Under the pieces are notes generated by a model. The model searched no databases and was not told the origin of the DNA. It saw nothing but the letters and a program-made list of their open reading frames with translations. The position numbers and the translations under genes are program-made. Below, piece after piece: positions 23,843 through 24,082 of a stretch of DNA of 64,000 nt. The stretch covers positions 107,012,001-107,076,000 of the forward strand of contig OX597822.1 of assembly GCA_951406725.2 (NCBI GenBank), in the 5' to 3' direction. Every line of letters begins with the position of its first letter. The first letter of the stretch is position 1. Source of the DNA: Octopus vulgaris. Lineage: Eukaryota.

Positions 23843-24082
23843 ACAGTTGCAGCGCAGAAGGTGTTTATATACATATATAAGAAACACACAAAAGCCGTTC
23901 GATTCACTTCAACATTTAAGTTTAATTTGTCAAAATATTTTCGTCGCTAAATATCCGCGACCTGTATATACAAAAATCCGTGCTGCATCACGGATTTTTG
24001 TCAGTGAACAGGTCGCGGATATTTTTCGTTTCAGCACACGATCTCAGATCAAATTACTTACATGCGAGTACATATCCGTAAT
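23843..24082. mobile_element. (TA)n-embedded palindromic Penelope-like element, copy 1
   Basis: Internal hairpin at 23949-24024. Ends are shared with 24582-24821. Confidence 0.6.

Follow-up and report, generated by a model that had tools for sequence, protein, structure and literature searches.

The pair between positions 3 and 8 is a key tertiary contact in the active hammerhead, and the locus described here raises the question of whether a natural hammerhead can carry this pair swapped, as G3:C8. The window, a stretch of 64,000 nucleotides of Octopus vulgaris DNA (contig OX597822.1, positions 107,012,001 to 107,076,000), holds at 23843-24023 two arms, both of which carry an incomplete type I hammerhead motif. 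The original prediction had assigned to the plus arm the 5' strand of stem I, the GTGAACA core, an extra G and the 5' strand of stem II, which we confirmed at 23997-24016, and had proposed that the minus strand of the left arm supplies the rest of the hammerhead, which is indeed found from 23965 down to 23926. It was equally right that the window contains no complete single copy, both arms being partial. The features of the locus are the following:

23536..23843, no strand: (TA)n target tract, left side
23843..23989, minus strand: inverted pseudo-LTR arm, 87% identical to the intact copy L236
23926..23965, minus strand: intact 3' two-thirds of the hammerhead, read from sequence
23961-23957 with 23947-23943, minus strand: stem II of the minus arm
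23942-23939, minus strand: GAAA of the minus arm
23932-23926, minus strand: 3' strand of stem I of the minus arm
23984..24023, plus strand: direct arm, ending inside loop II, with a deletion of about 105 nt relative to the intact copy
23997..24016, plus strand: 5' part of the hammerhead (stem I 5' strand, core, extra G, stem II 5' strand)
23997-24003, plus strand: 5' strand of stem I
24004-24010, plus strand: core GTGAACA, that is G3-U4-G5-A6-A7-C8-A9
24011, plus strand: extra G
24012-24016, plus strand: 5' strand of stem II
24023..24082, plus strand: one-sided tail of about 60 nt, which in tandem copies corresponds to ORF codons 10-31
24081-24105: short (TA)n run closing the insertion on the right
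24582..24821, no strand: second, differently scrambled stub of the G3:C8 family, a local duplicate unit with no complete hammerhead

The inverted arm (23843..23989) runs from the usual 5' end point of the family, through the hammerhead, to the short 3' end, some 10 codons inside the ORF, and on its minus strand the hammerhead core is damaged at positions 3-6. Reading from 23965 to 23926, the order is N7-C8-A9, extra G, stem II, GAAA, helix III, U16.1-U17 and the 3' strand of stem I, and the hammerhead consensus would place the cut between 23933 and 23932. On the plus strand, about 105 nt are missing at 24023, where the sequence jumps to the tail of the element. The window unit is a fold-back stub, a palindrome with deletions in both arms, that derives from the end repeat (pseudo-LTR, pLTR) of an octopus Penelope-like element (PLE). 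Neither arm alone satisfies stems I and II around the core, and the window copy itself would not cut because neither arm is whole. An Rfam scan of the window did not find a hammerhead at the gathering score, and the same held for an intact copy of the family at E <= 10.

Comparison of the whole window with the intact copy revealed family units only in the 23843-24082 region and, more scrambled, at 24582-24821. The two stub units are part of a local duplicate (23843-24276 and 24582-25054, 81% identical over 475 columns), each unit consisting of a family stub and a U6 element between TA tracts; their internal scrambles differ, and the duplicate is either a genuine duplication or an assembly artefact. 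The window also holds, at 23069-23151 (+), a 5S rRNA-derived fragment just over the Rfam gathering score and fused to another repeat, which is probably a pseudogene or a SINE head. In addition, short tandem arrays with a repeat unit of 169-184 bp, which we take to be a common octopus SINE, occupy 36059-36587, 39573-39882 and 54893-55449.

We looked for the joined motif in the genome. Results showed that the contiguous G3:C8 motif has 2,275 + 2,200 = 4,475 exact matches, against 0 for the reversed control, and therefore the motif is not a product of chance. The existence of contiguous copies, on which the original prediction had staked its reading, is thus established, although the query that it suggested was right only in part, as its 9-nt loop II was seen in the window copy alone; intact copies have mostly an 8-nt loop II, or a different 9-nt one. 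Similarly, the proposed palindromic stem III is self-complementary, but it consists of the 6-nt AAUAUU, since the 8-mer originally named takes in A14 and U17. A DNA search of the 2.8 Gb genome for the family returned 1,045 candidates, 40 of which were scored, and the 30 loci retrieved are, among those listed, nearly perfect palindromes, about 280 bp long, that bear a tail of 55-60 nt on one side.

Variation at positions 3 and 8 within the family is rare and looks, from the sequences, like decay. A base other than G3 is present in 130 copies; a C3:G8 subfamily was sought among the 100 of these that were listed and rejected, as none has C3:G8 and all 8 rows with C3 retain C8. Another 279 copies have G3 and a position 8 other than C. 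Among 100 listed copies of this latter kind, G8 is found in roughly one third and outnumbers A8, so that the G3-G8 copies may represent a minor subfamily or a mutation bias. We also rejected two wider candidates: further G3:C8 families with other stems (122 matches vs 13 in the control), where almost all of the 100 listed are degraded members of the same two lineages, and an A3:U8 family (26 matches vs 16 in the control), whose members in the window's family resemble double decay. A metagenome scan for the motif gave 0 matches.

Apart from positions 3 and 8, the core is canonical in a descriptor scan of L236 and L237, with U4, G5, A6, A9, G12, A13, A14, A15.1-U16.1 and a non-G residue 17. The literal C3/G8 consensus does not describe the family, which has G3 and C8; a Watson-Crick pair at 3:8 is possible as G3:C8, and as C3:G8 and U3:A8 in homologues. 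The motif also has an extra nucleotide after A9, a G10.1-C11.1 pair and a short palindromic helix III. As far as the available text of Cervera and de la Pena (2014, PMC4209133) describes them, the minimal hammerheads (min-HHRs) of PLEs share these three traits, the extra nucleotide lying between 9 and 10.1, together with type I topology, a common U17, a position in both pLTRs and thousands of dispersed truncated copies.

Stems I and II of an intact natural copy fold in type I order (z = -3.4). In the predicted fold, stem I is extended by a G3-U17 wobble that competes with G3:C8, the helix III duplex amounts to -0.2 kcal/mol only, and the predicted minimum obtained by dimer folding was not the hammerhead dimer. 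Minimal PLE hammerheads are described as weak even with a normal core (PMC4209133, in part).

To which element does the motif belong? A total of 443 copies extend further upstream, and walking upstream from the motif revealed, about 1 kb before it, an ORF on the same strand with reverse transcriptase (RT) motifs, a CxxxCxxC linker and a GIY-YIG domain, reaching 989 residues without interruption in L128. The GIY-YIG domain scores above the Pfam cut-off, and the linker between RT and endonuclease (EN) is present in P0002. As for RT, its motifs were seen directly, RVT_1 was found in 5 of 32 aligned homologues and is absent from P0002 itself, and the profile matches two RT structures. The motif lies downstream of the ORF in 5/5 long loci. 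In the tandem pLTR-ORF-pLTR copy L236, whose ORF is broken, each end carries the motif. A homologue labelled Octopus vulgaris at its source is 100% identical to genome copies over 120 residues. In 21 copies the tail continues into further sequence, which in several is the ORF, whose start codon comes 56 nt after the predicted cut.

The family has a single ORF with RT and, at its C terminus, a GIY-YIG domain, tandem and inverted pLTRs, a one-sided tail and target site duplications (TSDs) of variable length. Among 49 insertions with both ends defined, 27 are in TA runs and 16 of the 22 others have TSDs of 10-14 bp. A layout in which the pLTRs are tandem or inverted and the tail is one-sided is that of EN-bearing PLEs, in which a CX2-5CxxC linker between RT and EN is a feature of Neptune and Nematis, according to the sections of Craig 2021 (PMC8557442) that were available. 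Judged from its sequence, the host is an endonuclease-bearing PLE with a hammerhead-like motif in its pseudo-LTR, and its linker suggests that it may belong to the Neptune or Nematis clades. The same sections indicate that Neptune/Nematis-type EN+ PLEs share with the octopus element the RT, the linker, a GIY-YIG domain with two cysteines inside the motif, the tandem and inverted pLTRs, the one-sided tail and (TA)n targets. The octopus entries seen in the supplement of that paper (2 of 4 occurrences) are Naiads, whose domain order is opposite to that of the element described here. The parent element with a natural G3:C8 motif that had been postulated is supported by thousands of contiguous copies, including both ends of L236; G3:C8 had been taken for an ancestral state, and the family does carry it, but as a present-day state too and not solely an ancestral one.

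We also looked at positions 3 and 8 in related elements. Protein similarity alone led to a sister family (61% identity across the RT region), in which a C3:G8 motif occupies the same place in the same architecture, with the same extra G and with A-U in stem II where the window's family has G-C. The C3:G8 pattern of this sister architecture has 1,885 matches vs 16 in the control, belonging to several families (40 loci viewed). When positions 3 and 8 were left free, a small family showed U:A in 3/3 copies, and another family (n=54, counted by eye) showed 37 C:G, 10 U:G, 4 U:A, 2 C:A and 1 G:G, with U at 3 associated with A at 8 (Fisher p = 0.03). In an alignment of 8 rows (A1), the pair counts came to 91.7% paired and 3:8 was changed on both sides in 4/8, counts that are partly built in, as the patterns that fetched 6/8 rows had required positions 3 and 8 to pair, and helix III is misaligned in one row. 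Most simply, G3:C8 would be a derived state in a C3:G8 lineage, a direction suggested by C3:G8 being the more widespread of the two.

Older relatives of the window's family (33 matches, of which 30 were retrieved and 28 kept, leaving out a young copy and a member of another family) have G3 in 21/28 and C8 in 25/28. They also have C at the free position 7, a sixth stem II pair, a changed loop II, a helix III that is shorter yet self-complementary, and a two-sided change in one pair of stem I. The retention of G3:C8 from old to young copies is weak evidence by itself, because 43 of 58 downstream columns are unchanged between them too.

Other changes of the core were observed. A very young sister PLE family (L213:2622-2700 and other loci, L206-L235) includes many open frames of about 1,310 codons that are 98-100% identical; its youngest copies have a hammerhead with C9 and U17, and its older copies have A9 and C17. 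In addition, a minimal-hammerhead-like motif with C3:G8 and U6 is present in the window at 24165-24200 (+), 24928-24963 (+) and around 59725 (-). This unrelated family has 16,109 exact genome matches, against 0 in the control, with U6 in 96 of 100 listed rows and all four bases at position 7. As U6 and C9 spread uncompensated, cores can drift here, and selection on catalysis may be loose.

Does the G3:C8 motif cut? We lean towards the view that it retains slow cutting of its RNA, either in dimeric form or aided by the element's protein. The available parts of two studies report that a C3G/G8C double mutant partly restores cutting, in hammerheads generally (PMC8495972) and in the hammerhead of a PLE, whose own protein was required for it (PMC11167929); the 3:8 swap is thus compensatory, as originally claimed, with the reservation that the rescue in those studies is partial. 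G3-C8 has also been mentioned, as data not shown, to be more active with G17 than with C17 (PMC3884650, in part). This fits a G3-C17 trap, which the U17 of the octopus family would weaken.

The insertions bear on the same question. Copies picked solely by the sequence 3' of the cut (100 listed of 5,810 matches) nearly all retain the motif. Counting by eye, junctions fall at the predicted cut site in 31 of 91 rows, plus 15 explained by a fold-back of stem I, 7 nt downstream of the cut in about 27 of 100 listed (219 in all) and 6 nt upstream in 16/96. Compared with the downstream site, no pile-up of insertion 5' junctions was found at the predicted cut, the patterns differing in the visible preceding base. 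Three insertions (C7:24901928, C29:9192309 and C32:630047) show a fold-back or a stutter precisely on the predicted cut, too few for a signal.

The missing pile-up is in line with a non-cutting, structural role of the motif, which we consider rather unlikely. The spread of the U6 and C9 cores speaks for such a role as well, and so does the anole element, whose ribozyme-dead mutants insert normally in vitro and for which, in the available text, no RNA reads ended at the cut (PMC11167929). However, G5, G12, A13, A14, A15.1-U16.1 and a non-G 17 are kept in young and old relatives, several of these being fixed by the search patterns, and the laboratory double mutant does cut (PMC11167929 and PMC8495972, both in part). 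It is very improbable that the swap was instead due to two changes by chance, in a ribozyme that was dead and travelled with a successful element, its RNA fold free of selection. Any sequence can indeed be fixed by one founder, and the old and young G3:C8 relatives are close enough for two letters to persist neutrally, but the two changes are exactly complementary, whereas two core changes drawn at random from 11 positions would preserve the 3:8 pair in 3/495 outcomes, and relatives show other 3:8 pairings as well as stems I, II and III altered on both sides. Slow cutting by a natural G3:C8 motif is the reading that we prefer.

A different doubt concerns the window itself, where the scrambled units might stem from an error in the assembly or consensus across a perfect hairpin of 130 bp, the real locus being an intact palindromic copy. 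We regard this as possible, if doubtful: the neighbouring units share flanks while their scrambles differ, the second one mixes both arms in register, and intact copies are near-perfect hairpins (-236 kcal/mol), but this assembly contains many further palindromic copies that are clean, and copies with internal deletions are present elsewhere in the genome too. We keep to the reading of the window unit as a deleted fold-back stub.

How could such stubs arise? Most short copies start 10-20 nt upstream of stem I and end about 10 or about 31 codons into the ORF. Transcription may start about 15 nt upstream of the motif, where the 5' ends of the copies pile up, and reverse transcription may start internally at two sites within the first 31 codons, giving stubs of 150-210 nt with or without the tail that would often be joined to an inverted second copy to form a palindrome. 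In the anole element PAc, as far as the available text goes, reverse transcription also starts from two internal sites that bracket the tail, and the hammerhead adjoins the ORF start (PMC11167929). G precedes the usual start point in 20 of the 21 copies ending there; a cap is indistinguishable here from template switching, because the inverted tail ends in the same letters. A splice acceptor upstream of this point was considered and rejected, no constant upstream exon being seen, and we tentatively prefer a start site over a splice acceptor for the usual 5' end point.

In the RNA, two motifs would pair their AAUAUU segments to form helix III, and G3 would pair with C8 in the active fold, like in the laboratory double mutant. 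As the inserted templates would have been uncut RNA, cutting is probably a side step that is unneeded for insertion, and it could serve the processing of tandem transcripts or the removal of the cap ahead of the ORF.

The association of PLEs with hammerheads is already known, and the octopus G3:C8 motif is a variant, not a new system. The 56 representatives in Fig. S3 of PMC4209133, the part of that source on which the count rests, comprise 53 C3:G8, 2 U3:A8, 1 U3-G8 and 0 G3:C8, in contrast to the octopus family. Natural U3:A8 variants have been published (Perreault 2011, PMC3088659, and the Schistosoma Cercyon elements, PMC4209133, each seen in part) and share with the octopus family a two-sided change that keeps the 3:8 pair. 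U:A would be reachable from C:G via a U-G wobble, and G:C only through a mismatched step. The same swap as in octopus is the C3G/G8C mutant of PAc, a Poseidon element of Anolis, with partial rescue of cutting (PMC11167929; PMC8495972); according to the portions available, the swap there is engineered, whereas in octopus it is fixed in a natural family, and the tail measures 30-40 nt in PAc vs about 60 nt in octopus (PMC11167929). We rejected an identity with non-LTR retrozymes, which the text available describes as non-autonomous, with canonical type I hammerheads in repeats of 170-400 nt arranged head to tail (PMC7229834), as the octopus copies are dispersed or inverted and part of an ORF-bearing element.

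Among the full texts searched, few of them subscription papers, a natural G3:C8 was not found, only engineered ones. In the published material so covered, natural 3:8 pairs are C:G and rarely U:A, with G:C solely as an engineered partial rescue, and the octopus family is likely the natural form of a variant found in print solely as a laboratory mutant.

The broadest reading of these data, on which our judgement is evenly balanced, is that octopus PLEs carry an active natural G3:C8 hammerhead, which would complete the covariation of the core tertiary pair. Related elements would then form a natural core series (C:G, U-G, U:A and G:C at 3:8; C9; U6) missed by standard searches by tens of thousands of copies, and the swap would have arisen on a U17 background, avoiding the G3-C17 trap. 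Searches fixed on the CUGANGA core undercount such motifs. Moreover, more than 4,000 G:C copies beside homologous C:G and U:A families constitute a natural panel for asking whether PLE hammerheads are selected for cutting or for shape.
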